A stretch of DNA of 64,000 bases, taken from positions 47,956 through 111,955 of IMG/VR virus record IMGVR_UViG_3300045988_175607. The stretch is one strand, 5' to 3'. The notes under the pieces are model-generated. The model saw nothing but the letters and a program-made list of their open reading frames with translations, made no database searches and had not been told where the DNA came from. The stretch comes from a virus. Both the position numbers and the translations under genes were made by a program. How positions within the stretch are numbered: the stretch's first letter is position 1; every line of letters begins with the position of its first letter. Below are positions 2,565 through 63,678 of this stretch, in pieces.

Positions 2565-2579
2565 AATTTCACTCCTTTA

Positions 2580-3002: not shown

Positions 3003-3005
3003 AGA

Positions 3006-17382: not shown

Positions 17383-17408
17383 TGATTAAATATCTCCTTT
17401 TAGTTAGA

Positions 17409-36279: not shown

Positions 36280-39200
36280 TTATTGAATTTTACTATTTAC
36301 GTATTGCGCCGCCGCATTAACCAGATTATTAAAAGCATCTTCAATTTCATTACTATTGGTTACACTTGGGAACGTGGCTTGAATTTCAACTTTTTGTTTT
36401 AATTCATTCTGCAATTGTCCCTTAATCTGCGCCGCAACTTGTTGCGCAAAGGAAGCATAGCGAATATTGCGATTAATTTGATTATTCATATCACGCACTA
36501 TATTTACAGAATCAAGAATATTAGCGGTATCTTTTTTATTTAAGACTAACTCTTTTTCATGGAGAAGAGCAACTTTTCCATCAGAGGTTCCCCAATTACC
36601 AGTATAGCCGCCTGTAGCATAGCCATACAACCACTTAGAAGCTGTTTTTGATCCTTTAAGCCAATCAAAATAATCGGTTGACCAATTGCTGGTATAAAGC
36701 CCACTGATAGTTTTTGTTATTTTTTTACTTTTTCCATTTGAAGATGTTGCAGTTGCAGCTTTATTGGCAGCATTATTACGTTGTTGCTAATACCGCTGCT
36801 CCCTTGCATACTAAGATTCTTTTCCATAATTATAAAATTCTTCAATAACATCATCTGCATCTGAAGTATCATATCTGCGCTCAGGCAAAGGAACAGTACG
36901 ATAAACCCCTTTTCCCCCTCCACCAGGTGTTTTAGGGGGATTTTTCGGGCTTCCACCACTATCACTAGTCCCACTATTACTTTCATTACCAATCATATAT
37001 CCGCGGTATTCTCCACCTGCTTCACCAGTGTAGCTAGGTGTCCAATCCCAATCAATTTCAGGTGGATGATCCTTAAAATAATCTTCCCAACTACTATATC
37101 CAGCAGGCACTTCATAGGAGCTAAGATTCCATTTTTCGTTTGCGGCCATCATATCTCTAATGGCATTAAGATATGTTTCTTTCCAAGTTTGAATAGTGTC
37201 AATAACTTTTGTGATACTATCAGAAATATCTCCCATGAAAGAATCCATATCTTTAGCAAGGTCTTCAGTTTTACCATTCACCCAATCAATATTAATAATA
37301 ACATTATTACTGAAATTATCACTATCAATTCCCGCAGATTCATTAGCTTTGCGGATAGTATCTTGTAAATTTTTATACTGATTAATTAACTATTCTGGCG
37401 CATCTTTAACACCATTCATTAAGTTAGTTATATAAGTTAAGAAATCAGTCATAATGCCTTCATCGGCAAATACTGTATCAGCTAAAGTAGAATTACTATC
37501 AGCTAAAGCTTTATCAAATTCTACAGCGAGATATTGCAATTTATCATAATAGAATTGATAAATCTTCCAAGCCTTTTCTTGATAATCGGCTGCATTCTTA
37601 TCAAGCCCGCCAAGTTCTTCAAACATATTGTTTAAAGCATCAATAACTTGAGACTCCATTTCATTACGATATTCTTTCGCAGCTTTTTGCATATCATGCA
37701 ATTTATCTTCATAATTTTGTTCAGCTTCTGCGATTTTGTCTTGATCGGCAGTATAAACATAACCCCAATTACCTTCTGAATCGCGCTTCAGCTAGACCGT
37801 ATTCTTAGCATTGCGAGCCTCTTCCAAAGCAATTTCCGCAAGCAGTAATTCATATCTCGCACGCGCATGGTCTAAGTCATATTGGCTCATTAATGCGCCT
37901 TCTTCTTGATATTTTAATATTTCTTTTTGGAAATCAGCTAATCGACGTTTCGCTGAAAGATTGCTAGTATCATCAATCTCTTTGTCAATCTCACGATTTA
38001 ACTTGCTAATTTCATACCAACGGTCGAAATCATCAAGGTAGCGCTCGCGCACATCATTAACTTTATCAAGCTTATCAGCCATTGCATCTAAGCCATCGAC
38101 GAAAAGATTATCTTTGAAGTGCTGTATAATGGCTTCAACTTTACTTTCAAAAAATTCTGTTGCGGCTTCAATTGTATTCTACCAAGAGGAAATGAATGCT
38201 TCATAAGCTTCTTCACTTGCGGTTTCAAGTTCACGAACTTTTTCTTGCCAGAATAAAATATTTTCTTGGTCTCCTTGCTCAACTGCACGGGCAAGAGCTT
38301 TTTTAGTTTCTGCCAATGCTTGATTGTAAGTGTCAAGACGCTTTTTGTTATTATCAATCGTAGCGATTGAAGTATCCATTCTTTGTTGTAAGAGTTTTTG
38401 ATAAGTAGCAAAATCTTTAGTATTCATGCCAAGCAATTCCATAGTGTCACTGAAATGCTCAAGTACACTACCATAAGTCTCAAATCGACCTTCCGCTTCA
38501 TCAAAGCGCTCGGTCATCTTATCAATAGCCTCATTGAATTTCTCTTCAACCTCTTGAACTTTATCAAGCATTTTGAGATTAAGTTCTAAAAGCTTAGATT
38601 GATAATCTTTAATAGTATCCCATTGGTCTTGAGTTAATTCAGTAAGACCATATTTCATTGCACTATCATAAATTTTTTGAATAGCATCTTGATATTCCTT
38701 AGATTGTTTCATATACTCAGGAATATAATCGCCCATTTTATTAATCTATATATCAATATTTAATGTGCGGCTTCGAGTAAGTTTTTCAATTTCATACTCT
38801 ACTCGCTCAATTTCCTTTTCTGATAATTCAATCTTAAAATCAACTTCAACAGTTATGGCTTCTAACTCTAAATCAACAATTTGATTATAATAATCAATTA
38901 ATTTATCATATTCATCTTGCCATAAATCATGAGTTTCTTCATATTGATTAAGCGCATCTACTTTATCTTGATAAGCTTTTTCTGCTTCGTCGGTAAGCGA
39001 AGCATTAAATTCTGCAACCCAACCCGCAACAAGAGAATCATAATTATTGACATTGCCGCGAGAATCAAATGTTGCGCCCAAGGCTGCAAGAGCTTTTTGA
39101 TCATCAATGAGATTATCATTGATTTCAGTCATGTATTGTTTTTGGGCTTCCGTAAGCTCTTTGGTTTTCTCTATCTCCTCTTGGATAAGAGCAACCTTGG

Positions 39201-42200
39201 TCATACCATAGGCACGATCACGAGCTTTTTTAATGCGGTCATACTCACGCTCAAGATCTTCAAGAGTATTTTTTATTTCATGGTAACGCTCAATCTCGTC
39301 TTTATTTGACTTAGGCTCTTTTTTATCAGAACCGCCACCACCACCAGAGTTTTTCTTTTTGCCATTAATGGTTTTCATCTATGGGTCAGGAGCTTCTCTG
39401 GGTACAACAGCTTTATCTAAAGTAATACCAACTTTTACATCTCTAGTTTTATCAATAAAGTCTGCGTATTTTTTTGCTTTGGCTGCTGGATCTGTTTCAT
39501 TATTTATTTCATTAGCTAATTTCTATAAATCTTCATTTCCAGCCACTTCACCCTCAAGAGTTATATTGCTATAGCCTAATTCCATTAATATTTTTGCGAC
39601 AGCTTCTGCTTCAAGCCCAGCCGCATTCAAAGCCTACATTAAACCAGTAAAGTCTGCGTTGCCAGTAGCAGTTAAAACTATGGGGTTGTTATTAATAATA
39701 TCTTGAATATCAGAATATTTAACTTTTATACCATCTATGATGCCTTCTAAAGAGCCAGAATCATAAGCTACCTCTAACTAAGCCAAATCTTTTATTTGAT
39801 TACCCAACTAAATAAATTCATCGCCTGTTGAGTTAGCCCATTTTTTAATTAAATCAGCATTATTCTTAACGAAATCTTTAGATATATTTAAATCAAAAGT
39901 TTTATTGATTGATTTTGCTAAATCCTAAAAGATTTCTTCAGCCTCCGCGGAATTTTTATCTAAGTCTTCTAATGAATCAGAAGCTTTTTGGCATTCTTTA
40001 GCTAATTGTTCCCATTCAGCTTGACGAATTGCTTTTTCAAGCTCTTTAGCTGCTTTTTTTGCCTATTCAGAATCTTCACCATGCGCCTCAAGTTCTTTAT
40101 TATATGTTTTTAATTCATCATAACAAGAAACATATTGAGCACCAAGATTTCTTAAGCCTTTAGCGTGAGTACCTTCATATTTTTCACTTTCACTAAAAGC
40201 AGAATTTAGTTCATCAACTGAAGAGGCCACTTGAGAGACGACTTCCTAATCACTAACATTATCAAGTCTTCCTGATTTAGTGTTTTCAACATCTTGAGAT
40301 ACGTCATTAAAGAAATTAGTAATATCTTCAAAAGCTTTATCCCATTGTTCTTTAGTGGCTGTTACGCTACCTGATAAAATTTTTTGAGCTTCTTCAATAC
40401 TATCTCTTGAATATTGATTTTTTTCACCGACAACAGAAAAATCAAAGTTTTCATTTCCTAATGTAGATGATACAAGATTATCAATTTCACTACCGCGATA
40501 GGCAATATTTTTATCTCTTAAACTTCGCCCCGATTCTATCTATGCCTTCTGACTATCTATTAGTTCTTGGTCAAAATCTTTATTTAAATAATCATTAACA
40601 TTATTTCGTCTCTGCTCTCGCATTTTATTGGCTTCTTGGTTAGACGCTAAAGCAAAATCAACAGCATAATTATTTAAATTGTCAGTGCCAACATATTTAT
40701 ATTTTCCATCTATCTGTTCAATAAAAAGATTTTTTAACTTTTCATCATAGCCAATAAGTTTTTCATAACTTTCAGCATCAATAATATCATTAGTATTTAA
40801 ATCTTTAATAATTTCTAAAATACTAACTAATTGACTTTTAATAGTATCCAAATCTTTGATAACGTTTGAAGCGCTAGCTTTCTCCATGTTTTGAGCAAAC
40901 TATTGCCACAAATTGTCATCCTTTTTAATGATAATACCAAGTTCATTACACCTTTGATAAAACTCAGTTAATGCTGCGACACCTTTAGACCAATCGATTT
41001 CTTCCAAAAGCTCTAAAAATTTTGGCTAGTCTTTTTTAGAAATACTCTAAAACGCTTCAGTAAAATTATTTAAGCCCTCTTGTCCAGAAGAAGAGAAAAT
41101 CTGATCAAGAGTTTCGGTTAATTGTGCCTTATTGGCAACACTAATATCTAAATTATTAACTTTTATTTTATCAAAAGCTTTCTTAACCGAAGGGCCCATT
41201 CCCTTAGCTAATGAATCAAATTGTTTCTAAACAGATTCTGTTAAATCAATAATATTCTATTTAAAATCTTCAACAGATAATCCTAACCCTTCAATAATTT
41301 CATCAGTTAAACCTAATAAAGCATTCTATTCTTTATCACCTAATAAAATTTTATCAAGATCTTTTTGTTTTAACTATGAGGCATCACCATTTATTGCTGC
41401 TAACAATAAATTCTTTCCATCTTCACCGACGGCTTCTAAAGCTTCATCTAAAGCTTTTTCTGCTTTACCTACATATTCATCTCGGTTTTTATATACTTTA
41501 TTATAGGCGAGATATTCAGCCATTTCATCAGCAGTAAAAGCGCCGACCTCTTTACCATCTTTATAAAAAGTTGTTTTATTAGTTACCTAGTCTTTACTAG
41601 TTTTATTAGCTCCTAAAAGTTCTGCGACTTTTTGAGAATTATCATTACCAGCCGTTGGAAAATCCTTTTTTGCTTCCTCGATAAATCTATCTTCTAAATT
41701 AGAAAAAACTGTTAAAAGTTCATTTTTATTATTATTATTCTAAAACTTTTTACTACCTTCAATTTCAGAGGTGATTCTAGTCTTAGTTTCTGTTTTTATT
41801 GTATCTGAATTTTCCTATAAGGCAACTACTATATCAGAAAGTGCTTTTGTAAATTCATCATTGTCAAATAGCTCTACATAATAATCCGATAAAAGTGGAT
41901 TTTGAGCCGCCACTTCATTCCATTGCGTTAAAGATTTTTGAATATTAACATTCAGATCTTTAACATATTCTTCCAAACCGCCCTTATATTTAGCCGCATC
42001 TTGTGCAATAATTTTTAATACTTCATCATCTGTACCCGAAACACCAATTTTATCATTATCTTTTATATTTGTTTTTATCTATTTATATATATCTTGAATA
42101 TTTTTTTCATTTTGTAAAGCTGTAACAGAATAATTAGAAGCATTAACAAGGCGTTCTTTTTCACTTATATCTGATTGTAATTCAATTTTTTTATCTTCTA

Positions 42201-45200
42201 ATGACTGCTTATTGATTTTTATTAAGCCAGTATTACTATCTATAACAAAATCATCGCTATTTAATTTATAAGTTTCTATTAACTCTCTAGCTTCATTATT
42301 AGCAGATTTCAAAGCGTCATTAAAAGCTTCTGTTCCTACTGTTAATTTATTTAAAGATTTAACCGCAGTGTCATATTTATTAATAGTTTCTAATAAATTT
42401 TCATATGACTATTTAGCTTCATTAGCAGCTTCAGCCATTTTTTCAGTATTTTCTTGCGCTGCTTTTAAACGATTTTCAACTTTATTTGCCTCAGCCTTTT
42501 TTACAAGAACCGTAATTAACGCTACAAGTCCTATAATTGCTACAGAAATAGCTAATAATGGCAACCAGCCAGCCTAAGCAATAAGACCCCCGGCCGCAAC
42601 TTTTTTTCCAGCTTCTAACCCTGCCGCTCCCACAACTTTTTCTGCCCCAGCCTAGCCAATTGCAGATACTGTAGCTAATTCATGAGCAGTTTTCTAAGCA
42701 TCAATCAATTTAACAATACTGCTCATTCCAGTCATTAACTAAGGAATAACAAAACCTACCTAAGTTAATACTGCCGTAAATTTTTCCCAACCTGTTGTAT
42801 CAGGATTATTAAGAACATCAATTAGCCCTTGAACGGAAGAAATTACAGTTCCTAATGACATAAGTGCTGTAGTTACCTAGGAAATTGATGCAGCCCAATC
42901 GCTTAATTGTTGTACTGCGTCCTATTTTAACCCCTGTGTCATTTCATCAGCTAATTTATCTTGATAATTTTTAGTGGCATCTAATTCTTGCTTCTATCGA
43001 CCTCGCGCATTTAACATATCTATAACTTCTTGAGGAATATTATATAAATCTTGTCTATCGCTAATAACACCGTTTAATATTTGAGATATCGCATCGTCTC
43101 CACCAAGTTCAAAAAATTCTCCTGGAGCATAACCCTAAGAATTTTGAACTTTTAAAATTATCTCAAATAAATCTTTATATTCTTTTTCTCCTAATTCAGC
43201 TTTACTAGTTAACTCTTTAACTTTATCAATATATTCTTGTAATTTTTGTTTTTCTTCATCAGTAAGTGCATCTTTATCGATTAAAGGATTTTCAGCGTTA
43301 AATGCTTCTGCCTACAACTTTTCAAGCATTAAAGCTAATTCTTTGGCTTTCGCTATGGCAGTATCTGGAACTATATCTTTAAATGATAATTTTTTTTCAG
43401 CCATTCTTTGTAATAAGGCATCAATATTAGTACTTGCAGGTATATCTTCTCCGGTCTCGCCTATATTTTTATAAATCTCACCAAAAATACTTACAACTTC
43501 ATCTTGATATTGAGTGGCTCTTTTCCATTTTCCCTAAAACTCCGCTTGAGCGTATACTTTTTCTACATCTTGTTCAGCTTCTTCTTGAGTTAAAGGTTCA
43601 TCATAAATATCAAGTACACGAGTAAGTTCTTCCTATTGCTTTTTTAGCTCTTTAAGACGTTCTTTGGTTTTATCTATTTCTTTTTGATAATATACAAAAA
43701 AATCTTTTACTTTTGTTGCATCTTCATCAGAATTAATCCCAGCCAATTTTTCATTTAATTGTTTTTCTGCTTCAGAGCGAGCAACTAAAGCAGCATCTTT
43801 TTTTTCGCCTTTTAAACCTCTTAAAGAGGTATTTGCTCTTATTTTTTTTAACTAATCATTTTGATAAGCCTTTTTAGCACGATCCAAAGCCGAGCCTTGT
43901 ATATTATCTATTTCTGCTGCTACTTCAACTTTTCTTATTTTTGAATTTTCAATATTTTCATCTCTTGTTGCTTTTGAATGTACGACACTGCGCTCTTTTT
44001 CATATTGCAATAACTTTTCACTATCTTTTAATTGTTTAGCTAATTCCTAACTATGCTTTTGTAAAGTATCTAAACCATCAAGCTAAATCTAAAAGCGTTT
44101 TTTTGTAACATCATTTAAACTATTCTCATATTTAAGGAAAGTCTCTTGCAAAGAAGTGCGTTGTAATAAATTGGCTCCCTAAGTAGACATTGAAATGTCG
44201 GAACTACCAGACATAGTACGATAAACACTTTGTGCATCTTGGATTGCCTATCTTTTACTCTGTTCAAATGCTTTTTGGCCCGCAGGAGTCAATTGTTTTA
44301 TTGAAATTGCAGCATTGCGTAAACCTTGTGCCATTTCCTACTAGAACACCTTGGTAACAATAGTTCCAATAGTAAACAATACACCTTTTAAGCCGCCCAA
44401 ACCATTAATTAAATCAGCTACAAACTCAAGAACATTTTTTAAACCATCAGTCATGGTAATAAAAGCGTCATCTTTTAATAACTAACTATAAATCTCTTCG
44501 GCGGCAGCTTGTACTCTCTTAGAAGCACCAAGCCAGCTCTCTTCAAAAATCTTAGCCTGATTATCTAATTCACCAGTTGAGCTTTTTGCAACACCAACTA
44601 ATTCCTAAAAATAATCCCAATTACTCATTAAAGTAATTAATTGATTATATTGACGCACACCAGCAACAGTTTGCGCCAAAGCCATTTGCTGATCTCGACG
44701 TAAAGTAGTCCATTTATCACCCAGCTCATTCAAAATAGTATCCATATCTTTCAATTCGCCGGAAGTATCTTTAATATTTATACCAACTTTACTTAAAGCT
44801 TCAGAATATTTATTTAAATTAGTGCCATCATCTTGGGTTTCTCCAAGAGTCAAGCCTTGAATACGAGAGAATAATGTACGTAATGCAGTACCAGCTACAT
44901 CGGCACTTTCACGAGTTGTGGCTGTAATAGTTGCTAAAGCACTTGACGCATATTCATAACTTAATCCAATAGTCTGAGCAACAGATGAGAACTTCTCTAA
45001 ACCTTGTGTGATTTCGTCAGTACTAGAAGCTGTATACGCACCCAATTTAACCAAAACGTCCGCAAAATATTCAAGATTATCAGAGCCTTGTGCAAAGTTA
45101 TTCCATACGGCAGTCATCTGGTCTGCGACAGTTTCAGCACTAACACCCGCAACATTCGCCATTTTTATTGTGGCATCTGTACGCTTTTTAACTTCTTCAT

Positions 45201-45867
45201 CACTCAAACCCTATTGATAGTAAATCAATGAAGCGTTTGTATAATTAGTGGTTGTAGTACTCAAAGCTTTTGCAGCTCTATTAGCTTCAACCGCAAAATC
45301 CTTCATCTATTCAGCACTATATCCAGTAACAATACGAATATCATTCAAAGATCTATTTAAATTTTGAGCATAATAATAAGCCTTTTGCACACCGCCCATT
45401 AAACCATGTACAATACTGGATGATAATTGCCATCTCGCAGTATTTGATAACGACACACCAAGTTCTTTTATTTTACTATTTACGCGAAAAATTGGCGCTT
45501 CAGCGTTAACAATAGCTCTTGTCATACCATTGAAAGCTTCCATGCCCTTCGGACCTAAAAGCGCCAATTCATTACCATAATCTTTTAAGGTTTTTCCACT
45601 TTGTTTAAGTGAAGCATTGAATCTATTTAAATCCAACTTGCCAGTCTTAGGATTCATCGCAGATTCTAACTAAGCTTGTAATTCAGCGGCAGAAGCACGA
45701 GCCTTCATTAAGGCATTATCCAGATCTGAGAGTCCGCTGCCATTATTCCAATTTAAATTTTTGCCAACGGCTAAACTATTTAAAGCTTGCTATAATGATT
45801 GTATTTCCTTCTTTGCCGCATTAGCATCTGCGGTAAAAGATAAGGTTACATTTAACTGTTTTGGCAT
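36280..45867 (-). CDS. Tail tape measure protein (about 3195 codons, dozens of in-frame TAG)
   Basis: Ten track ORFs from 45307 down to 36280 all have mod 3 = 1; every fragment end checked (45307, 44605, 42079, 40540, 38746) is TAG; long coiled-coil E/K/Q/L-rich text; C-terminal YGYATGGYTGNWGTSDGKVALLHEKELVLNK is typical of TMP ends; SD AAAGGAGC + ATG 45867; TAA 36280. Confidence 0.7.
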
Positions 45868-45978: not shown

Positions 45979-46512
45979 TTACTTTAGACCAAGTAAAGGT
46001 GCTATCTGCTTCAAAAGCTCTAGATTGTTAGGATCAGCGAGCTTCTTTTGAATTTCATTAGCATCAAGATTTAATTGGCTATAGTCTTGAGAGATTGTAT
46101 CCATAATACCAGCCGTAGAATTTTGATAGGTATAAATTGAATCAACCATCTTACTAATTTCCGCAAGAAGTATAGAATATTCATTAGTTGGTAAATAATC
46201 CATAAGCTTACTCATAAAACCAGAACCAATAAGCAAATCATAAATCTTTGAAGGATTTTCTAATTGTTTTTCTGTAAAAGTTATATTAGTATAGTTACGG
46301 ACTATTTCAAGTGCAAGATATACTTCTATTTTTACTGCATTAGAAAATTCCTTTTGCGCATCATGGGAATTATTAATTACAGTAGCAATAAGATCAAGCT
46401 TATCGGCTATTGGAAGATATTGCTTTACTTCAATAGTCTCATTATTATAATCAAAAGTTTTTATATCTTGATTTTTATTTAAACCAAGTTTTGTAAAAGA
46501 TACTTTTGCCAT
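45979..46512 (-). CDS. Tail assembly chaperone-like protein (177 aa), TAG-free
   Basis: SD AAAAGGAGA + ATG 46512; TAA 45979; lies directly upstream of the TMP gene. Confidence 0.5.
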   Translation of the reverse strand: MAKVSFTKLGLNKNQDIKTFDYNNETIEVKQYLPIADKLDLIATVINNSHDAQKEFSNAVKIEVYLALEIVRNYTNITFTEKQLENPSKIYDLLIGSGFMSKLMDYLPTNEYSILLAEISKMVDSIYTYQNSTAGIMDTISQDYSQLNLDANEIQKKLADPNNLELLKQIAPLLGLK

Positions 46513-47965: not shown

Positions 47966-48964
47966 TTAGTCTATGAAATATTCCTCATGAGCCTTGATAT
48001 GATCAGTCTTAAGACGCTCGATATCAGAAGCACCCGCAGTTTCAATAATCTGAATTGCGGCGAGGACTTTCTTAGTCTTGTCGAAACGAGTATAATCAGG
48101 GAATGCATCCATGGTAAAGGTGAAAGTAGAAGGATCGCCAGAAGACGCCATTGTGAAAGTAAAGTTAGACTGAATCTTGCAGTTAGGAATAATAAATTCC
48201 GCAGGCATATCTACACCATTGCGATCACGGAACAGAGTAGAAGCTTCAAGATAGTAGTTACCGCCAAACTTATCGGCAGTAATTTCAATCTGCTGCGCGC
48301 CACTTTCCTTGGCTACATAATAGTCTACCAGCACAACGCAACCAGCCTTGAAAGGAGTGAGGTCATCACGCTCAGCACCCTCAGCAGTACGAGTAATGGG
48401 CAGAGTAATCTTATAACCAGAATAGGTTATACCTTCGACTTCTTCAGTAACTTTCACATAAGTATTATCAGCTTCCTTATTGCTGTAACCTTCGGGCTTA
48501 GCAGGAATATAAGGCTCAGTGGCAACTTCATCGCCATCCATAAGCATAACATAAACCATATCCTCATTATTATCAGCAAAATAGGGCTTTTCTTTCAGAT
48601 AAATAGTAACCTTATCGGCATCTACTATAACCTGGTCAGTTTGTTCAGTTGTATGAACATAAATAGGAGCGCCCTTACCAGCTTCAATAAGACCAGCACC
48701 AGAAAGAATCATGAATCCCGCAGGGGAAATCAGAGCATCCTCCATGGTGAAGGTTACTGTGCGCTCACCTTCCCAAGCTACAAGACGTGTATTACCACGT
48801 CCGCCTTGCGCGTAAACTGTGGTTGCAGCGCCTTCCATGCTGGAGGTCTTCAATGTATCAAAATAAATAACAGGTTCATTTTTATAGAATATTTTATTAC
48901 CCACTTTTTGAGGTGCTTTCGCCTTTAACACGACGTCACAAATCTCGCGGACACCAAACTTCAT
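47966..48964 (-). CDS. Major tail (tube) protein (332 aa), TAG-free
   Basis: SD TTAAGGAGG + ATG 48964 (MKFGVREICDVVLKA...); TAA 47966; strong terminator follows; sits upstream of the chaperone/TMP block. Confidence 0.55.
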   Translation of the reverse strand: MKFGVREICDVVLKAKAPQKVGNKIFYKNEPVIYFDTLKTSSMEGAATTVYAQGGRGNTRLVAWEGERTVTFTMEDALISPAGFMILSGAGLIEAGKGAPIYVHTTEQTDQVIVDADKVTIYLKEKPYFADNNEDMVYVMLMDGDEVATEPYIPAKPEGYSNKEADNTYVKVTEEVEGITYSGYKITLPITRTAEGAERDDLTPFKAGCVVLVDYYVAKESGAQQIEITADKFGGNYYLEASTLFRDRNGVDMPAEFIIPNCKIQSNFTFTMASSGDPSTFTFTMDAFPDYTRFDKTKKVLAAIQIIETAGASDIERLKTDHIKAHEEYFID

Positions 48965-48987
48965 AGTGTTTTGTTCCTCCTTAATAT

Positions 48988-49713
48988 TTAATGAATATTT
49001 TTCATCCAATTATCGGGTTGTTGATCCGGCTTACCTCCCGCCAATCTAGTTCGGACGTCAAGATCCCAATTAGTATACAGAGAGAGTCTTTCAATTAAAT
49101 CATACATCTAAAACATAGTTAAATCTAAAACATCATGTAAAGACATTGAGTTAAGGCCTACTGTTAGGATGGATGCGTATTGGGCAAAGATGCTGCCCGC
49201 ACCCTCTCCCTTCTCCGCTGCAACTCGTTGCCGCCCTCGCATGAGCTTTTCCGCAATTTCTCTTGCTTTAGCATCTGCAGGATTGAAAGCAGTTTCACCC
49301 ATCGCCCCGGAATTAACACAAAAAATTTGACGTAAAATTTCTTGAAAGGAATCAAAATTACCCTCATCTAATATGATATTTGTATCTTCTTTATTAAAAA
49401 AAATTGACCGAGGGGTAAAATTAATTTTATAACTCGGACATATCATATTTAATAATTGTTTCACATGTATTTTTTTATCTTGCCCTTCTGGACTATTTAA
49501 AAGTGTCATGACAATCTAAAAGTTATTAACCGTAGCCAATTCTTCTTGATTCTCAGCAAACATGCGTTTATCTAAACAAAGAGTCTAAACACCAGTAAAA
49601 AAAGGCGTTTCGCCCAAATAAGCTATCTCCTTGATTTTCGGCTAGTGAATAATTAAAGGACATTCAGGCACCGCAATATCTATACCAGATATTAAGGCTA
49701 GCCGCAAATCCAT
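48988..49713 (-). CDS. Hypothetical tail completion/terminator-like protein (about 241 codons, 4 in-frame TAG)
   Basis: Track ORF 49108..49509 extended through TAG to ATG 49713 (GAGGG upstream, overlaps the previous stop) and down to TAA 48988. Confidence 0.4.
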
Positions 49714-52285: not shown

Positions 52286-52882
52286 TTACTTTACTACTTT
52301 ATAAACTGGAGTAGTGGGAGTTTCTTCGTTACTCTTCTTGTAATCAACAGTAGTACGACGTCCAGTAGGTGCAGTATGAGCAGTTTCAGTATTTTCCTTC
52401 TTTTCAGTTTTTGTAAATACTTCATCAGGCTCCTTAGACTCTTTATCATGCTGGATAGCAGCAGTAACATTAAAACCAGTCTTTTTCTGCAAAGCCTCTA
52501 TCTTACGAGTATCAGTTAAAGGCAAAGACACAGAATATTTCTTAATTAAATCCATAGCACCAACGGGAGCATAATCAAGAGCATCAAGCCACTGATCAAG
52601 TGGGCCAGTTTTAATCAAATCTATAATATTCTTTTCTGACATCCAATATTCAGGAGTTGCATAAATATTTAAGCTATTGATTGCTTCATCGCTATCAATT
52701 TGCAAAAAATTTGCCATCAATTCACGACCGCCAGGCTGATAAGTAAGTTTTTCTAACTCTGCATAAGAAATTCTCTTGTTTTCACCAGGCGCGAACTCTC
52801 TACGGATATTTTCTTCTGGAATTTTATAAACTACTACACTAGCACTACGATTTTTTACATTAAAATTTTTATTACCAACCAT
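52286..52882 (-). CDS. Hypothetical head protein (198 aa), TAG-free
   Basis: SD AAAGGAGAT + ATG 52882; TAA 52286. Confidence 0.5.
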   Translation of the reverse strand: MVGNKNFNVKNRSASVVVYKIPEENIRREFAPGENKRISYAELEKLTYQPGGRELMANFLQIDSDEAINSLNIYATPEYWMSEKNIIDLIKTGPLDQWLDALDYAPVGAMDLIKKYSVSLPLTDTRKIEALQKKTGFNVTAAIQHDKESKEPDEVFTKTEKKENTETAHTAPTGRRTTVDYKKSNEETPTTPVYKVVK

Positions 52883-52906
52883 TTTATTATCTCCTTTTTC
52901 TCATAG

Positions 52907-52950
52907 CAAAAAATGGGAGAAAAGGGATACAAAGTACCCTTTTTTCTCCC
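52907..52950 (-). terminator. Terminator hairpin after the major capsid gene
   Basis: GGGAGAAAAGGGATAC / GTACCCTTTTTTCTCCC imperfect 16-bp stem with a flanking A/T run. Confidence 0.5.
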
Positions 52951-52963
52951 CTTATATTAAAAA

Positions 52964-54073
52964 TTACGGATTGTCGTTACCAATAACAACATTAGACTGC
53001 CAAGCAACATTGGAAGCACCATCAAGATGCCATGTATCCATTTGACCCAGAAGAGCAGTGTCAACATAAGCACAAATATTATTGGCCATCATGCACACTA
53101 CGCCAACCTTCTTATAGACCTGAACTTCGCGAGAGCGATCATAGTTATTATATTCATCAACGATAGTATTACCTTCAAAAGCAACCTTTACAGGCTTGCC
53201 ATCAGCGCCAGTAGGAATAATCCAAGCATAACCAGGATCAATAACCTTCTTTTCATTAGTGCCATCTTCAAAGCCCTGTTCAAGAATAACAACCTTCTTA
53301 CCCTTATAGCTAGCCAGACGGCCGGTACGCCAAAGTTCATCCTTCATAGACTCAGTATAACGCCAAGCTTCCTGAGGAATCATATTGACAGCAAATTCAT
53401 AAGTACAATAAATAGTAGGTTCGCCATAAGCAGAAGCAATGGTTAAAAGGCGATCAAAGGAAGCCTCATCAAAACCTGCGGCCGCAACGCGATTTGCAGG
53501 AGGAAGCTGATTGATAGAAGCCTTCAAGGCAGCACCAATCTCCTTATAAATGAGTTCATCCATACCTTCCATAATAATAGCGGTAACTTCAGCGAAATCA
53601 ACACGGCCATCAAGAAACTCTTCAAAGCCAATCTGAGCAGCGCCACCAATCGCGCTAGTGCGCACTTCAAAAGCCTCTTCAGCTACGCCAAGCTTAAAGA
53701 CCTCATACATACCAGCAAGGCCAACGCGAGTTACAAACTGCTTAGCACGCTGACGAGTGTTAAGCTTCCTACGGAAAATGGGTTTATCGCCCTGCTTAAA
53801 AGTCTTAACTTCAGCGAACTGATTATACTGCTCTTCTACCTTCTTGGGGAGAACATCATCAAGAGTCTCTTCAATAATGGAGAAAATCAGATTTTTATTT
53901 TCACGATAAAGAGAATAAGAACCCGCAAGTTCATTCATCTCCATACGAAGTGTTTCATTAAGTGTATCATAGTCTAAATTCTTGCCATCCCAGCTATAAG
54001 CAACAGGAGAAGCAGGCTTAGCCTTAGCTACAGTCTTCATTAATGCAACAAGATTATTACGATCTAAAGCCAT
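52964..54073 (-). CDS. Major capsid protein (369 aa), TAG-free
   Basis: Complete ORF; SD GAAAGGAGA + ATG 54073; TAA 52964; higher-GC, well-biased codons; position within the portal-scaffold-capsid order; a terminator follows. Confidence 0.6.
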   Translation of the reverse strand: MALDRNNLVALMKTVAKAKPASPVAYSWDGKNLDYDTLNETLRMEMNELAGSYSLYRENKNLIFSIIEETLDDVLPKKVEEQYNQFAEVKTFKQGDKPIFRRKLNTRQRAKQFVTRVGLAGMYEVFKLGVAEEAFEVRTSAIGGAAQIGFEEFLDGRVDFAEVTAIIMEGMDELIYKEIGAALKASINQLPPANRVAAAGFDEASFDRLLTIASAYGEPTIYCTYEFAVNMIPQEAWRYTESMKDELWRTGRLASYKGKKVVILEQGFEDGTNEKKVIDPGYAWIIPTGADGKPVKVAFEGNTIVDEYNNYDRSREVQVYKKVGVVCMMANNICAYVDTALLGQMDTWHLDGASNVAWQSNVVIGNDNP

Positions 54074-54090
54074 TATATTTTTCTCCTTTC

Positions 54091-54855
54091 TTACGCTATG
54101 CGCATTAATTTAACGCCTTTTTGACCATCAGGCATAGTATACAGACGCACTACCTGCCACTTCATAGAGCCATCACCAGACTTGCTGAGAATACCGTCAG
54201 CCGCACGGGGAGAAAGCTCATCACCAAGAGCAAGAGTAGATTCCGCAATCATGTTAGTGGTAAAGATATCACCCACATTAGTCTTAAATACGCGGGGAAC
54301 CATCTTAGTGCCTTCGGGCATCTTGCGCTCATAATGCTTACCAAGAATGTGGAAGGGATCTTCATTATAATGAATTTCATAATAATCAGGGCCGGCAGTT
54401 ACATCGTCATAATTGTAAGTCTTGCCACCAAGTTCAATGCTAGAATCGCCATTATTATCTACGCCATTGTAATAACGAGTCTGTTTATCCTCTTCGGGCT
54501 TTTCCCAATCATAAGGACTATAAACACGAGCTTCATAATTATCTTTCAGCATAGCGAACTCAGCATCAACCTGATGTTCACGATAAAGCTTAATCTCATT
54601 ATAAACAAGCATCCATTCGCCCTTACCAGCGAAATTTACCTCACCACCATTGGCGGCAGCATAGTCATATTTTACAAACTGACCATTTTCTAAAATCTTA
54701 ATATCTTTATTAGCAGGCAGCTGACCATAAATCTGTCCAGTCCTCTGAGCTGAAAGATGGTTAGGTTCTACTTGGCCATAACCATAATCAACATAGCCGC
54801 CATTAGCGGAATCTGCCTGGCTAGTAATGTGTTTCTTTAAAAACTCACCCAGCAT
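54091..54855 (-). CDS. Capsid-associated protein (254 aa; decoration or auxiliary capsid protein), TAG-free
   Basis: Complete ORF between the scaffold-like gene and the MCP; TAA 54091. Confidence 0.4.
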   Translation of the reverse strand: MLGEFLKKHITSQADSANGGYVDYGYGQVEPNHLSAQRTGQIYGQLPANKDIKILENGQFVKYDYAAANGGEVNFAGKGEWMLVYNEIKLYREHQVDAEFAMLKDNYEARVYSPYDWEKPEEDKQTRYYNGVDNNGDSSIELGGKTYNYDDVTAGPDYYEIHYNEDPFHILGKHYERKMPEGTKMVPRVFKTNVGDIFTTNMIAESTLALGDELSPRAADGILSKSGDGSMKWQVVRLYTMPDGQKGVKLMRIA

Positions 54856-56427: not shown

Positions 56428-58035
56428 TTAACTCATAGATTCTTTATTCTAGATAGTTTTTTCGCTCTTTTGGTCATCAGATTTTTCTGGACGACCAATT
56501 TCTTTACTATCCTAATTTGTTTGATTTTTTATCTAATTACTTTGCTCTTTGTTACCCAAAATTAAATCACTGCTCATAGTAGAACTCATAAGCGGAGGAA
56601 TCATAATTTCGTATAACTTTAATATATCATTCTCAAAGTGGGCAGAATTCAAAATGAAACTCTAAGAATGTCCAAGAGCAATCTAAGGTAACATCTTTGA
56701 GAAACCAATCTAAGATTGTTCTTTATATAATTTTGCCAATTCTTTATAATTATATTGAGTTGTTTCTAACATACAAAAATTAAAAATACACTTACTATTT
56801 TTATATTTTTGGCTTATAATACGATCAAAAAACTATTCAAATTGAAGCAATAACTTACGTATCGAAGATTCATCATTAAGAATTGATTTTTCCAAAGACA
56901 AATTACCATCAGTATTAAATAAATTACGCGAAATACCTAATGCATTATAAACAGTGCGTTCAACTTTTTCTAAATCATCTTTGGTGGTTGAAGTGTTTTT
57001 ATCAGACATATCAATAGAATCAACATCTGTAAATGTCGTTAAAACATCAACTCCAACAGCACGACGCAACATTTCTACTGCATTGTTGTGTATATCTCTA
57101 GCTTCTTCAACATCAAATATTAAATCACCATTTTTGTCTCGCGGCAATTTTTGGACAACAATTTTTAATAATTGCTGCATTTGTTTTTTGCGGTCCAGGT
57201 CTTGGGCGGCATCCAAGTCAAGAATCGCAGGAATTGCATTTACAAACATTGGTAAATCATGATGCAATAAATTAAATTTTACAGTATTTTCTGGTTCAAG
57301 CAAATACCAGCTTCCCTAATTATCTCCAGCAAAGTCAGGTTGTAATTTACCCTATTTATAAAGTAAATATCCTTTTGAAAATTCATCAGGAAATAACTTT
57401 AAAATACGCATACGATAATTAGTGTCTCTAAACGTATCAAAGTATCTCATGTCAAATTCTACTGCAGGAGTTGAACCAACATTATAGCGGGAGCGGCAAT
57501 AGTCAGTTGGCAGCTATTGTAATACTAAACTTTTATTCATATTAACAATATATCCATAATAAGCGCCATTTTTGACTACTTCTAAAGCTATATCGCCGCA
57601 CACTTTTTTAATATAAGATTTATCAAGAAAATCTAATACACTAGCAAAATTTTTTAGAACTTTCTCGACAATAGCATCTTCATAAACTTTTGGATCTACA
57701 TACCAATCATAACGATAAAGATAGGCGAAGTAATTGCAGACCTTTTGATAAATACCATTTATCTCATAAAAAAGATTAGAAATTCTTCGCTGTTCTTTAA
57801 CATCATGTTCCATTAAAGCTTTAATAACCATGCCTTTATTAATTGCTGGACCATGATTACCTTTATCTTTTGGATTGGGACAATAGGAACCTAATTGAAG
57901 AACAGCATCTTCAACAGATTTTACTCCAATGCGAACTTTCTTATATTCATTAGGTGCGTCTGTGCGATAATATGCATATCCATCAACCATAGCAAAACCT
58001 TTATCATGAATTTGCTATGTGCGGGATTTATTCAA
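56428..58035 (-). CDS. Portal protein (about 535 codons, about 11 in-frame TAG)
   Basis: SD AAAGGAGGTG with a 9-nt spacer to TTG 58035; track ORFs 57514..57990 and 56833..57303 share a frame and are joined by TAG; TAA at 56428-56430; located immediately after the large terminase. Confidence 0.55.
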
Positions 58036-58056
58036 ATTACGCACCTCCTTTGCTGT

Positions 58057-58413
58057 TAATATCCAGCTCGTTCCATAATATAATCATAAGAAATAAGATT
58101 CTCTTCATTATAAGGTATTTCTATTAAATTAAAATCATGTAAAGCACAAAATCGACGTTTTTGATTATCGTTATATTGCTGTTGGTAAAAACCTCTTTTG
58201 CCACCAAATTTACTACTTGGTTGGTAATGCTATTTACCCTAATACTCAATAATGAAATCAATACGTCCATCATCATCAAAAATAACAAAATCAAAACGTA
58301 AAGGACGCCCATTAGGACTTTTTAAATCGGGAAAAATATACTCCATTTTAAAGTTTAAGCCTGCTTCGCGCAGGATTTCTTCGATCTTGATTTCCGCTCG
58401 TGAAGCTCGCACT
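58057..58413 (-). CDS. Small DUF559/Vsr-like (restriction-endonuclease-fold) protein inserted between terL and portal; 2 in-frame TAG
   Basis: Motif RFDFVIFDDDGRIDFIIEY-TAG-GK-TAG-HY corresponds to the family signature IE.DG.QH if TAG = Gln; apparent GTG start at about 58413 after GAGG; a 31-codon MKNFAVIANRAIRSFNTT... ORF with a strong SD (58414..58507) precedes it in another frame, so an indel or programmed shift may be present. Confidence 0.4.
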
Positions 58414-58521
58414 ATTGATAATACCTCGCAGCAATATCAGTATAGTTTAATATAGTTGTATTAAAACTTCTAATAGCTCTATTAGCTATTACTGCAAAAT
58501 TTTTCATATTTTATTTCTCCC

Positions 58522-60252
58522 TTAATTAAAAAAGGCCCAATCTTTTGCATTAAACCTTTTACGTTTTTTCTTGTCATCTTCCTCATGTTTAATGTAATAT
58601 AATCCATATTCAAACGCAGAAAATTTGTCTTTTCGTATCCCACGATTTACCTATTTTAAAATAATATTAATACCTTCATTTTCTTCACGAAGATTCAACA
58701 TTTCTTCTTTTAATATGGAAGTGTAATTAAATGGTTTTAAATAATCTGTCCTTTGTTCGGGCGTCATATTTTGACCAACTTTTGTATTAAGTAATTTTGC
58801 TTTTGCTGTCTATACATCAATCAAAAATTTTACTTTTCCAGAAGATAACTGAGTTTGCGCATTTGCATGAGCATCAGTATTTAATGATGCATTAGCTTTA
58901 ACTAAATACATTGCATCTTGTTCTGTAAAATTAGTTTTATATTTTTTATAATAGTTATCTTCATCGTTATAAACACCAAAATCATAATAAGTTTCATTTG
59001 TCTCAGGATTAACCTACGTTTTTATCATGTAGTCTACAAGTCCAATACCTAGACCATTCGCATCTATGATAAGACGTCGCGCCTTAAACTTATAATATAA
59101 CTATTTTAATTTTATTGCCTAATCTTCAAAATGCTCATCCGTTAACACAAATATGTTAACTAATTTTTTGATTGATGTACCCTGCTATTGTGGAATTACA
59201 TTAAAAACGCAAACAACAGTATCACATTGTTTGCGGCCCACATCCACAGAAAGCACATAATAAGATTGTTTTGATGCACGTCCAGATGGCTCATATTCCG
59301 GTTGATTAAGAATACGGTTTCGCTCAAAAACTTCAGGATTGAAAAATGCATCCTCTACTGTTCCAGACCATTTCGACTCATATTCTCGCTAAAACGCACT
59401 TTCATTAAAAGTACCATCCATACGTAAATCTTGAACAAAGCTTTTGTCCAAAAGCTTCATAAGCACGGGGATGCGATAAGTGCCTCCAAGTATAATTGAA
59501 CGCTCTGGCTTCACGATCTACCAAACTAACAACTAGATGAGTTTGTCATAGGCATACGTGTTCTTATATCCAGCTGTAGTCACGTAGATTTGGGACTTGT
59601 TGAGCGTTTCCTCAGGCTATGTTGTTCCATCCATACACATACGTGAAATGTTCATTGTGGGAATGATAACCTGAGACAATATATCGCCATCGACTCCAAC
59701 ACATTCTTCTATGACTCCCCCATGACGACGCTTACCACGAGAGGTTTCACGCGCTGCAATATTATCAAAATAAGAGCCATTTTTAAATACTATTGTAGTT
59801 TGGTCTTTACTAAATCTAGTTTGACCAGGCCTATAATCAATTTCCTTATCCATAGCTGGGATAAGGTTACATATTTCTTGCACCTTTTCTTTTATGATTC
59901 CGGCTGCCTATTCTTTACCACCCGAAGTAACGAAAAGTTTGCACTTAGGATACAAAATGCAACGAATCATTAAAATCATAATCGCAAGAAATGATTTACT
60001 GTACGCGCGCGGATAAACTGCGTATACGTATTTATGCCGCATTGCCGCACGCAAAAAAACTCGTTGATAAAAATAAAGATGAAAATTTTGGGGATTTCCT
60101 GCTTCCAAAAGAAAGTCAATAAACATATCTGGGTATTCGCGCCAGAATGCCACATATTCACGCACCACTGGAAGAATTGCGGTCACACGCTCTTCGGAAA
60201 GCCCTAATTTATTGTATCGAGACTATAAATTTAAAAGTTCTTGTAATGCCAT
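58522..60252 (-). CDS. terL: Terminase large subunit (about 576 codons, about 10 in-frame TAG)
   Basis: ATG 60252 overlaps the upstream TAA (TAATG); Walker-A-like YPRAYSKSFLAIMIL near the N-terminus; track ORFs 59908..60186 and 59617..59883 are joined by TAG; hand translation continues through 8 further TAG codons to TAA 58522. Confidence 0.7.
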
Positions 60253-60683
60253 TAATTATTTTTGCCCAAGGCTAATTCTTCAGTCAATCGCGCATCTGCT
60301 TCTTGCTCAGACTCAAGAAATTCCTCTTGCTCCATAAAGTCTGCATCAGTAATTTCTGGAACTACATCTTCCATTATTTCATCTTCGATATCTTCATCTT
60401 CTTCTTTATTTTCTTCGTAATTCATTGTGCGTATTGAAGATTCAATTAAGTTGCCCAAGTTCATTTCTTCTGTAACTAAAGTACGCACATAATTTTTTGT
60501 ATCCTATAAAGTTTCATCAACTTTATCTTGTGGTGTGGATATATAATAACGTGGTATAAAACCTTGCTATTCACATAAAGTAACAAGTTCAGAAACTGAA
60601 TTAACATATTCACCAGATTCTGCCTTGTTCTGAGCAGCGGTAAATTTTCCTGATTTCATTAAGTTATCATACACACGGCTCAT
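60252..60683 (-). CDS. Putative small terminase subunit / DNA-packaging protein with acidic C-terminus (about 143 codons, 2 in-frame TAG)
   Basis: GAAGG + ATG 60683; TAA 60252 overlapping the terL start; the small-terminase call rests on position and size only. Confidence 0.35.
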
Positions 60684-60847
60684 TTTTTGAAAACCTTCTA
60701 CCATTATATATGTTACGAAGTATCGCTACTACTTCTCTTTACATTTCTGTAAAGTTCAGACTATATCTTTATCTTTTACCATAATTTTAAAAAGATACTC
60801 TCCATTTCGGAATACTTATTCCTACGTCTTTCGACTAGTCGTTGAAC

Positions 60848-61687
60848 CTTTTATTTAAATTTCCAATAAAATCCTCCGGCTAAGCCTTGTTTAGAAATTG
60901 CCCTACTTATATTAGCAATCTTCAATTCTTTCTAAGCTTGAGCAATAGAAGGAAATTCTTTAATTATGTTTTTTTCTTTATCTAACTGATACACAGGTTT
61001 ACTACTTTTGTTAGTTTTTATTATATATGTTGCATGTAAATTATTTTCTTGATAAGTAATTTTTTCTAAATTTTCTTTAGCATTATTTAATTTATTGCCA
61101 TCTTTATGATTTATAACATATCCTAATAAATCAAAATCATTATAAAAATTACTATAAACTAATTGATGTATACGATAAGTTTTACCCTAATTATTATGCC
61201 ATAAGCTTATACACTCATATCCACCACTATTATCCTAATAACTTTTTAATAATCTCTAAGTGCGAATATTCATTATTCGTCCTATAGATGAAATTACATA
61301 ATTTGGATAATCTTTTACAGGTCGCCATTCTTCATCAGATAAATTCCCAATAAATTTATTAATGGTCTAGTTTCCGTTTTTTCGCAATCCTGTATTAATA
61401 GCATGTATACTATTTTCTTTTTCAGTAACCCACTCTAAATTATTTATGTTAAAATTATGGGTATCTCCATCTTTATGATTCACTATATTTTTCCCAATGG
61501 GCTATACTAAAAAAGTTTCTGCAACCATTCGATGTATTTTTACCTATTTCTTTTTTCCATTTATAGTTAAATTATAAGTAGGATATGTTACTGACATTTT
61601 TGGTGTTAAAAACTTGTTAGATAAATTACTAAAACATCTACCATCATCATAAATGATATAAGATGTATCTTTATATTGTTGAAACAT
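60848..61687 (-). CDS. HNH homing endonuclease with NUMOD4-like N-terminus and two HNH_3-like motifs (about 279 codons, about 8 in-frame TAG)
   Basis: SD AAAGGAAAT + ATG 61687; motifs VNHKDGDTHNFNINNLEWVT and INHKDGNKLNN (H-x-D-G-x-x-x-N-N), plus YPNYVISSIGRIMN (NUMOD4-like); TAA about 60848; no track ORF because TAG recurs every <60 codons. Confidence 0.6.
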
Positions 61688-61834
61688 ATTTATTTCCTTT
61701 CTGGAATATTAAATAACTTGGCTGCTGATTGTCTATATATCTTTATTTTTTTCAAACTTTCTAATTTATCTCTATAAAGAGATTCTTATGTAGTAAATAA
61801 AGCTTTAAGAGTTTCCAGCAATTAAAAGAGTTTT

Positions 61835-62598
61835 TAGGCGACATAAAAAAGTTTATCGCCAATATCAATCAACTAATTGGCTTTTAAAGAAGTTTTACAT
61901 ATTAATTTAAGAGTGTCAATATGACCGGCACTTTGAATGTCATAAGACTGAAGAAATTCATTATATAATTGTTCAAGCTTAATCCATTCTTCAGGCTTAT
62001 AAGTTTTTCCCCATTTAAGACGTAACATTAATTTTTCTTCATCAGTTAAATCAAATGTTTCTTCAGGGACTTCAATATTATTTTGCTAATCAAAGTAATC
62101 CTGTGATGAGCCAAACTCATCACCATTTGAGGTGGGTATCTGGGGTTGTTCATAATGTTCATCAAATGTAAAAGTAGCCTTATTAATAGCTTCAGCAATT
62201 TGTTGAGCATCATATCCAGAACGCTTCATCGTTTGTTCTATTTTACTTTGCGCAAGTTCCTGTAAAAAAGCCGTATCTTTCCATCGATAATCTCTAAATT
62301 GTTTGAGTTTCATTTTAGAAAGGTAGCGCCCTATAATGGTCATACCAGTTAATTTTTCTGGATTGCCAGCATATTTTGCCATTAACTTGTTCCATTCATC
62401 AGGAACATAAGGTACGTCAGCTTCTTCTAAAATCCAAAGATAAGTATTTGGATCCCAGTTATCAACATGCATGGTCATACATTTTTTGCAAATATCGAAT
62501 TTACCATTGTTAGGATATTTTTCTAAATTATTAGAAGAATAAAATTGTTCCCCATCCATGGTACGATTACATTTTTTGCAATAATATAATTCGCCCAT
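61835..62598 (-). CDS. Zinc-ribbon protein (about 254 codons, 2 in-frame TAG)
   Basis: SD AAAGGAGAAAT + ATG 62598; N-terminal CKKC...CKKC pairs; track ORF extended through TAG 62086 and 61874 to TAA 61835. Confidence 0.5.
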
Positions 62599-62601
62599 AA
62601 A

Positions 62602-63678
62602 TTATTTCTCCTTTTGTTTTTTCTTTTTACTTTTAGCATTGCGGCATTTTTTACATATACTGTAATAGCCATCTTTGCTAGTTTTATTTTTAGAAAAATA
62701 TTTATTATGAGCTAATTTAATTTGTCCACAGCAACTGCATCTTTTATATTTTCCTTTTTCAATATTAAGATAATACCAATCCAAATATTGATCTTCGGCG
62801 GCACTTGCTATTAATTTAGGAATTTTATTACGCCAAAGACTCGATAAATATTCAAGGCTATGAGTAATACCAAATTCTGTCTGTAATAAATTTTGTATTT
62901 CAACATTTTGCCGACCATCTATTTTATATAACACTAATTTTTGATAAATGGGATAGGGTGCAAGCGCAATGGTGGAAATTTTATCAAAATCTTCCATAAG
63001 ATAATATAAATCTCCAATAAATTCACTATAACCATCTTGTTTTAATTTGGAATATAAACATAAAATTGTCGAACAAATGTTTGGATCCAAAAGAGAGAGA
63101 CCTAAAGGAATTGGATATCCTTCTTCATCAAAATTGCAAGTCTTATCATCATAAGTAAGTTTATAGATGCCGCGGGAATGCGCAGTCGAGCTTGCTTGAA
63201 TAGGCTATCGGAAAGAATCTTTAACAAGATATTGATCTTTTCGCAATTCAATAATTGTTTTTCGTGTAATAAAAGCTTCGCGGCCTTGCGCGGTTTTTGC
63301 TTTTTCTTCCCAAAATTCAATGGAATTTCTTATTTGTTGTAATTCAGGTATTTCTTCTAAATCTTTTTTTGTTATTTTTACTTTTGGTTTGAATATTTGA
63401 TTTTTATTTTCATGGATTAAATTATAGATTCCATCTTCGCCACTTTCTAGTTGTGATACAAGGCCTTCAAAAGAAGTTTCACGTTTATTAACTGTGGCTA
63501 AGCGGTTTTCAGTTAATATTTTGCGCTCACGGCGCTCTTGACGTTCCATGCACATAACTAGATAATCAGTTAAAATTTCTATGTATTTTTGTGGAGGGTT
63601 AGGCTATTCAGCCAAAATTTGTTCCACTAATTGTACTCTTTCTTTTGGAGTTTCTAAAGAATAATCTAATTTTATCAA
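62602..63678 (-). CDS. Zinc-finger protein (about 358 codons, at least 2 in-frame TAG), possible regulator/replication-associated
   Basis: Track ORFs 63205..63555 and 62602..63090 share a frame and are joined by TAG 63205; C-terminal CSCCGQ...CKKCRNAK; probable TTG start near 63678 after SD AAAGGAGG; TAA 62602. Confidence 0.45.

Follow-up and report, generated by a model that had tools for sequence, protein, structure and literature searches.

A predicted stand-alone Vsr-like nuclease gene fixed between terL and portal in a TAG-recoded phage

What are the two short open reading frames (ORFs) that lie, in different frames, between the large terminase gene terL and the portal gene of the phage represented by the IMG/VR virus record IMGVR_UViG_3300045988_175607? 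The question arises in a stretch of 64,000 nucleotides of this record (positions 47,956 to 111,955; hereafter the window, in whose coordinates positions are given), where the flanking genes and both ORFs, as well as every other gene, are on the minus strand. A preliminary description of the sequence had reported a 31-codon ORF with a Shine-Dalgarno (SD) sequence followed by an ORF of roughly 118 codons in another frame, and on re-reading these coordinates hold. The second of them, ORF2, is a complete gene under selection, with its own GTG start and GAGG SD sequence and with two in-frame TAG codons that are read as Gln. Its product is predicted to be a stand-alone Vsr-like PD-(D/E)XK nuclease of 118 amino acids (aa) that comprises the catalytic core only, while the frame anomaly is a lineage-specific spacer bearing a short, poorly conserved upstream ORF (ORF1). 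The nuclease is the catalytic module that also forms the C-terminal domain of the 'VSR/EDxHD' homing endonucleases. The locus is largely ordinary. We hold the gene structure, the family placement and the evolutionary history, taken jointly, with good confidence; the biological role stands outside this assessment and is weighed separately below.

ORF2 (58056-58412, minus strand) comprises 118 codons from the GTG at 58412-58410 and ends at the TAA at 58058-58056. It is not a chance ORF. A database search returned 2,225 clusters, of which the best 120 are 83-91% identical to ORF2 and nearly all exactly 118 aa long. Every inspected homologue begins at the ORF2 start residue (MRASRGEIK...), and the N-terminal core MRASRGEIKIEE is shared by the 15 inspected homologues, mostly of 118 aa; the few longer homologue gene calls have N-terminal extensions that are unrelated and not conserved. 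In 12 fetched contigs the terL stop is followed by AGGAGG and then by the nuclease ATG, at a distance of 9-19 nt from that stop. In 77 further loci the nuclease starts with ATG (56), GTG (17) or TTG (4), and with GTG or TTG in 21 of these 77 a GTG start is normal for this gene. The GAGG assigned to the window GTG is found at 58424-58427, 11 nt upstream, and is kept in three related assemblies (L099, L157 and L086). For annotation, the nuclease gene should be called with translation table 15 from the GTG at 58412 as one 118-aa protein, with ORF1 left unfused.

The two in-frame TAGs are ORF2 codons 58 (58239-58241, in the motif IEY-Q-G) and 61 (58230-58232, the Q of a nearly invariant QH motif), and the peptide given in the preliminary description, ...RFDFVIFDDDGRIDFIIEY(TAG)GK(TAG)HY..., is exact. 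The same description had pointed out that TAG falls at a conserved Gln position, and comparison with relatives confirms this. Among 78 distinct gene sequences of the clade, codon 58 is CAA in 58, TAG in 14 and CAG in 6, and codon 61 is CAA in 42, TAG in 25 and CAG in 11, with no other codon at either position. L086, a strain 99.6% identical to the window, has CAG at codon 61 where the window has TAG. The nuclease locus is a clean internal control for TAG = Gln. Elsewhere in the window, the large minus-strand ORFs emerge only when TAG is read through, with up to 53 in-frame TAGs in one gene, so this phage is clearly TAG-recoded. Phages of this group are already known to use code 15 (PMC10607447). 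ARAGORN detected no tRNA gene, and hence no suppressor tRNA, within the 64-kb window; tRNA-Sup(CTA) genes are carried elsewhere in the genomes of phAss-1 relatives (PMC10607447).

Recoding is uneven along the window. The minus-strand genes at 15382-18137, 45979-46512, 47966-49009 and 52286-54855 are free of TAG, whereas their neighbours are rich in it, with 53 TAGs in 36280-45867 and 28 in 7731-15278. The former (minus strand) is an ORF of 3,195 codons whose size fits the tape-measure proteins of phAss-1-like phages, which have 3,149-3,209 aa (PMC10607447). In two relatives, L150 and L158, a TAG stands exactly at the usual nuclease stop (...AGY-TAG and ...GGF-TAG, respectively), and under code 15 the ORF would continue for at least 9 codons. 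In this pair TAG may still terminate translation, or the recoding may be lacking.

With TAG translated as Gln, ORF2 matches the PHROG 9084 'homing endonuclease' family (E = 1.1e-27, 98 bits, profile positions 60-165 of 187) and PHROG 559 (E = 1.5e-26). The DUF2726 model (Pfam: PF10881) matches 51 out of 73 diverse relatives, with a best E-value of 2.4e-9. No relevant match was obtained in the PDB from the single sequence or from a profile, and a search of NCBIfam found nothing for the nuclease. An AlphaFold (AF2) model of the homologue P0001, 91% identical to the window protein, was built on the 73-sequence alignment and reached a pLDDT of 96. It has the Vsr-like alpha/beta core fold, and its structural neighbours in BFVD are proteins of 250-600 aa labelled DUF2726, homing endonuclease or 'Group I intron-associated VSR homing endonuclease'. 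This catalytic fold spans the 118-aa protein from end to end, and ORF1 is not homologous to any upstream domain.

The residue order of this PD-(D/E)XK group, an Asp on strand 2 followed by E-x-Q/D-G-x-x-H and D-x-x-K/R, is present. In the alignment of 73 family sequences D41, G59, D82 and K85 are invariant, and at least 90% of the sequences keep S4, E56, Q61 and H62; in 49 distinct clade proteins D41, E56, Q61, H62, D82, K85 and G59 are all intact. The predicted active site is formed by D41 (58292-58290), E56 (58247-58245)/Q58, H62 (58229-58227), D82 (58169-58167) and K85 (58160-58158). Vsr, DUF559 and DUF2726 were grouped into one PD-(D/E)XK cluster by Steczkiewicz et al. (PMC3424549). The protein would be a small, probably homodimeric and Mg2+-dependent DNA endonuclease, with dimer formation and Mg2+-dependent cleavage expected by likeness to the catalytic domain of I-Bth0305I (PMC3239194), and it is likely to be made late, together with terL and portal.

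Among characterised systems, the nearest type is that of I-Bth0305I and the other 'EDxHD'/VSR-type homing endonucleases (PDB 3R3P; PMC3239194). They have the same order of residues, with an acidic residue in the first helix and then Asp, His and Asp, and they are also phage-borne. Relatives of the window protein that are longer than it are endonucleases associated with introns, in terL and in further essential genes. At their N terminus these have treble-clef zinc-ribbon repeats or NUMOD regions, and many are encoded within a split terL. In contrast, the window protein is the 118-aa core without a NUMOD/helix-turn-helix or treble-clef zinc-finger DNA-binding region. Its gene is free-standing and not part of an intron or intein; an Rfam search of 57900-62800 gave no match at E <= 1, while group I introns in terL genes of relatives are detected by this tool at 90-93 bits. 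Furthermore, the window nuclease is fixed and vertically inherited and not patchy.

E. coli Vsr (PDB 1CW0) shares 14% identity with the window protein, and its gene is a dcm-linked repair gene, whereas the window nuclease is found in a phage packaging module. Vsr has a Cys/His zinc site. Since the window protein has a single Cys (C89), this site cannot form in it. A zinc-binding motif in Vsr is noted in PMC3239194. The families DUF2726 and DUF559 (Pfam: PF04480) share with the window protein the pattern of an E-x-(D/Q)-G-x-x-H and a D-x-x-(K/R) motif. The 'homing endonuclease' of the Enterococcus phages VRE9_1-4, EF1, EF5 and H1 (XAG97638.1; PHROG 9084) is 51% identical, has the same start region and occupies the same place, in the order terL, nuclease of about 120 aa, portal. 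It differs in using the standard genetic code without TAG codons and in following terL after a 17-nt spacer with no upstream ORF.

To see how the gene came to this junction, its distribution has to be considered. An IMG/VR scan with terL gave 80 loci with terL identities of 58-97%, of which 77 reach beyond terL, and an intact nuclease gene is located between terL and portal in all 77. The gene order YonG_N, terL, nuclease, portal, YonD_N holds in standard-code contigs at 46-53% nuclease identity, and phAss-1 shares this order, as do the Enterococcus phages VRE9/EF1/H1, whose annotation calls the gene a homing endonuclease. The nuclease of the most distant loci examined is only about 40-50% identical to the window protein. 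Across the loci, nuclease identity to the window tracks the identity of terL (Spearman rho = 0.75) and of portal (0.84). On average, the nuclease is 77% identical to that of the window, the last 300 aa of terL are 69% identical and the first 300 aa of portal 56%. Non-synonymous differences in the nuclease gene amount to 0.065-0.11 (about 0.08) per site, while pS, at about 0.76-0.83, is saturated. No decayed copies were seen, and the presence is not of the patchy kind that would be expected for a mobile element.

The nuclease gene is absent only in relatives with terL identities of 48% or less. There is none at the junction in Geobacillus E3 (terL 48% identical), Alicyclobacillus KKP_3916 (47%) or Bacillus PJN02 (32%), where portal follows 12-30 nt after terL. 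The presence in 77 of 77 loci, the divergence in step with the flanks and the absence in distant YonF-type phages together indicate an ancient and fixed insertion and not a recent selfish one. The preliminary description had suggested a selfish insertion similar to the HNH gene upstream of terL; its insertion part stands relative to the distant relatives, and a recent selfish origin does not agree with the universal presence, the co-divergence and the purifying selection. In these respects the nuclease gene is unlike the HNH_3/NUMOD gene at 60851-61687. By this comparison, the gene entered the terL/portal junction in an ancestor of a large clade of gut Firmicutes phages with a YonF-type terminase, which includes the phAss-1-like code-15 phages and the Enterococcus EF1/VRE9-like phages, and since then it has descended together with its flanking genes, under strong purifying selection.

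The frame anomaly is explained by what precedes the gene. Between the terL stop, read in the sequence as TAA at 58524-58522, and the nuclease start the window has a spacer of 109 nt (58413-58521), and alignment to relatives shows that about 95 nt of it are extra. A comparison of the terL-portal spacing in relatives, as proposed in the preliminary description, places the nuclease start typically 9-30 nt past terL, so the window spacer is longer. It holds ORF1 (58412-58507, minus strand), whose SD sequence GGGAG (58521-58517) directly follows the terL stop, 9 nt before the ATG at 58507-58505. The 31 sense codons of ORF1 (MKNFAVIANRAIRSFNTTILNYTDIAARYYQ) are followed by a TAG (58414-58412) that shares one base with the GTG of ORF2, and the offset between the ORF1 ATG and the ORF2 start is 95 nt (mod 3 = 2). 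With this TAG read as Gln, ORF1 has 50 codons and ends at the TAA at 58357-58355.

A homologous spacer of about 85-95 nt is seen only in three other assemblies, L086, L157 and L099. Over 10,383 nt, L086 shares 99.6% identity with the window; the two differ by 38 single-nucleotide polymorphisms (SNPs) and by one 3-nt indel elsewhere, and they are 100% identical over 126 nt spanning the junction. L157 (terL 95% identical) has the same 95-nt offset and a CAG in place of the ORF1 TAG, and thus an upstream ORF of 50 codons. L099 (terL 97% identical) has a 10-nt deletion that makes the offset 85 nt (mod 3 = 1), and its nuclease starts with ATG. Because of this deletion the upstream ORF of L099 is in a different frame and the ORF1 peptide is not conserved there. 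ORF1 itself has no Pfam or PHROG family match, and no similarity was found to the regions that precede the nuclease domain in longer homologues.

We looked for other identities of the spacer. Its predicted RNA fold is unremarkable (z = -1.2), it matches no Rfam family, it has no second copy within the window and no convincing terminal inverted repeats, and a consensus scan of the coding strand for promoters and terminators gave nothing above shuffle expectation. A 25-mer of the spacer is absent from IMG/VR, and a degenerate search for the junction pattern matched only two contigs that were already known. In a metagenome scan the 17-mer query proved too short, with 75 chance matches among 76, and the remaining match is the independent assembly L086. 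The SD sequence and ATG right after terL may be the ancestral initiation region, stranded by the insertion.

In other lineages unrelated terL-to-nuclease spacers of 33-160 nt are found at the same place, so the junction tolerates regulatory or junk insertions. An extended -10-like TGATATAAT is present in the unrelated spacers of L101/L105 and of L161/L164, the spacer of L114/L167/L168 contains a perfect 14-bp hairpin (TTATTGCTACTATTA...ATAATAGTAGCAAT), and TTGGGCA/TTGGGTA-AAAT just past the terL stop opens several of the long spacers. Larger insertions also occur, on both sides of the nuclease gene: L016 has two extra genes (362 aa, and a CTP_transf_like protein of 154 aa) between terL and the nuclease (1488-3025), and L105 has about 750 extra nt between the nuclease and portal (6162-6917).

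Several points weigh against the account given so far. Concerning the family, the preliminary description had proposed a restriction-endonuclease-fold protein of DUF559/Vsr type; the fold and the likeness to Vsr are borne out by the model, and the Pfam assignment is not, as DUF559 does not match the window protein at E <= 10 and Pfam Vsr (Pfam: PF03852) does not match it either. Both models also fail on all 73 relatives (DUF559 at E <= 0.01). DUF2726 reaches 21.2 bits on the window protein (E = 2.6e-4), below its cut-off of 24.7 bits. The profile alignment to Vsr with hhalign is not significant (E = 0.058) and reproduces the expected motif pairing, with the weak pairs SRAE/TAIE (E7/E25), RFDF/RPDF (D41/D51) and EYQG/FTHG (Q58/H64) of nuclease and Vsr; the Vsr residues in this pairing are those mapped for I-Bth0305I (PMC3239194). 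The structure was predicted for P0001 as a proxy and not for the window protein itself, and the nuclease activity, substrate and oligomeric state are putative. Concerning the gene structure, the spacing of 11 nt between GAGG and the GTG is long, and for the upstream ORF both start codon and translation are putative. Concerning the history, the 357-nt nuclease gene holds 13 of the 38 SNPs that separate the window from L086 (P = 2e-10). There are also loci in which the nuclease and its flank disagree, as in L177 and L162, where terL is 61-64% and the nuclease 82-84% identical to the window.

The SNPs are most concentrated in 57856-58329, a stretch of 474 nt that spans the 3' two-thirds of the nuclease gene and the first ~180 nt of portal and holds 19 of the 38 (P = 5e-16). 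In L086 the 3' end of the nuclease gene resembles that of other lineages (...DENLISYDYIMKRAGY), which suggests a recombination tract. The cluster shows local recombination, compatible with ongoing homing-type behaviour. In the strongest rival explanation the nuclease is still mainly a selfish free-standing homing endonuclease, like the upstream HNH gene; it would cut the terL/portal junctions of co-infecting phages where these are variant or lack the nuclease, and be copied in during repair. The SNP cluster and the partial discordance with the flanks speak for it, as do the closest characterised relatives, which are catalytic domains of homing endonucleases, several of them inside the split terL of Twortvirinae. 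The position, with a conserved essential gene on either side, is typical of such elements, introns and homing-endonuclease genes abound nearby, and the nuclease is missing in distant relatives. However, there is no empty site among the 77 relatives, whose terL identities range from 58 to 97%, and no decayed copy; the nuclease co-diverges with its flanks and is more conserved than both; and the protein of 118 aa has no DNA-binding domain, unlike I-Bth0305I with its NUMOD repeats (PMC3239194). We consider a mainly selfish element possible and rather unlikely.

What is found here is a core free of any DNA-binding domain that is fixed between terL and portal and more conserved than these essential neighbours. 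Such fixation and conservation are unexpected for a purely selfish element and suggest a role that benefits the phage. We therefore lean towards the nuclease being kept for some benefit to the phage, a role linked to packaging included. A comparison is offered by phage HK97. HNH proteins of the HK97 gp74 type adjoin the terminase and portal genes, and a role of gp74 in terminase cutting has reportedly been demonstrated. Like them, the window nuclease is small, stands alone and is conserved within the block of packaging genes; it differs in its PD-(D/E)XK fold from the HNH fold of gp74, and related YonF-type phages package without a window-type nuclease gene. A packaging-linked role comparable in logic to that of the HK97 HNH protein would be a tentative proposal, to which we give a low probability. 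Equally speculative is the wider idea that the nuclease could be a domesticated catalytic module of a homing endonuclease that became a fixed working part of the packaging block in this very large clade of gut Firmicutes phages. If so, it could be an accessory nuclease that acts with the YonF-type terminase or clears branched DNA before packaging, and would be the PD-(D/E)XK equivalent of the HNH proteins by which HK97-type terminases are assisted.

The remaining explanations concern ORF1. It might be a functional leader that tunes nuclease synthesis by the suppression state, with translation ending at the UAG that overlaps the GUG or reading on to 58355 with UAG as Gln. All four genomes with the spacer keep the SD sequence and ATG, with little change over the first 18 codons, and UAGUG, the overlap present in the window and L086, is a classic arrangement for termination and reinitiation. 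However, no such switch is possible in L157 with its CAG for TAG, L099 has a frameshifting deletion of 10 nt and a different end of the upstream ORF, and the spacer occurs in four genomes only. Between the window and L157 there are 9 differences in the 95-nt spacer, about 4 non-synonymous and about 4 synonymous in the upstream ORF, too few to show constraint. As the upstream ORF is poorly conserved, a dedicated function is unlikely, and we judge a leader of this kind to be improbable.

The preliminary description had also offered a programmed shift that joins the two frames. In this explanation a -1 (or +2) ribosomal frameshift would join ORF1 and ORF2 into one protein of about 150 aa. ORF1 does have a good SD sequence and an ATG and ends exactly where ORF2 begins, and the fused sequence lengthens the match to PHROG 9084 by about 11 profile positions (2.4 bits). 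Searched as a candidate in Pfam, PHROG and BLAST, the fusion brought no meaningful gain over ORF2 alone, with at most 1.6 additional bits in BLAST. ORF1 is also unlike the sequence upstream of the domain in long homologues, the homologues begin at the ORF2 start and most of them leave no room for ORF1. The junction (...GCG AGG TAT TAT CAA TAG TGC...) has no slippery heptamer of the form X XXY YYZ, and the offset is 85 nt (mod 3 = 1) in L099 against 95 nt (mod 3 = 2) in the window. Since the frame relation varies, no slippery heptamer is present and most relatives lack ORF1, a conserved programmed frameshift is excluded, and this explanation is close to refuted.

The least probable explanation, a sequencing or assembly indel (also raised in the preliminary description) or a decaying pseudogene that splits one gene into two halves, could draw on the adjacent ORFs in different frames and on the two breaks of ORF2 under table 11, but these breaks are TAGs read as Gln, the difference from relatives is a block of about 95 nt and not of 1-2 nt, the gene is under purifying selection with intact catalytic residues, and the presence of the same block in three independent datasets (L086, 38 SNPs apart and identical over the 126-nt junction stretch, and L157 and L099 from other datasets with the same spacer) excludes a sequencing indel.

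Returning to ORF2 as a complete nuclease gene behind a lineage-specific spacer, its neighbours are as follows. The YonF-type large terminase gene terL (58522-60252, minus strand), identified by tblastn matches to annotated terminases and to YonF, has 576 codons with 12 in-frame TAGs and no interruption. The portal gene (about 56428-58035, minus strand; PHROG 2739, E = 3.7e-84) likely starts at the TTG at 58035, with an AGGAGG at 58049-58044, 8 nt apart.

Upstream of terL there is a yonG-like gene, which has 404 aa in the relative L011. The window copy is split exactly between residues 255 and 256, with residues 11-255 at 62583-61855 and residues 256-401 at 60701-60264 (minus strand). The insert of about 1.15 kb (60702-61854, minus strand) carries an HNH_3/NUMOD4/NUMOD1 endonuclease gene (60851-61687, minus strand). 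It matches no group I intron model at E <= 1, and is either a divergent intron or the sign of a truly split gene. In relatives, terL itself is interrupted at different positions, after residues 224, 84 and 198 (L157 4927-5149, L156 4235-4481, L186 2057-2295 and L168 ~4595-4854). The terL loci of L157, L156 and L186 each contain a group I intron (Rfam: RF00028, 90-93 bits), and that of L186 has a DUF723 endonuclease gene as well.

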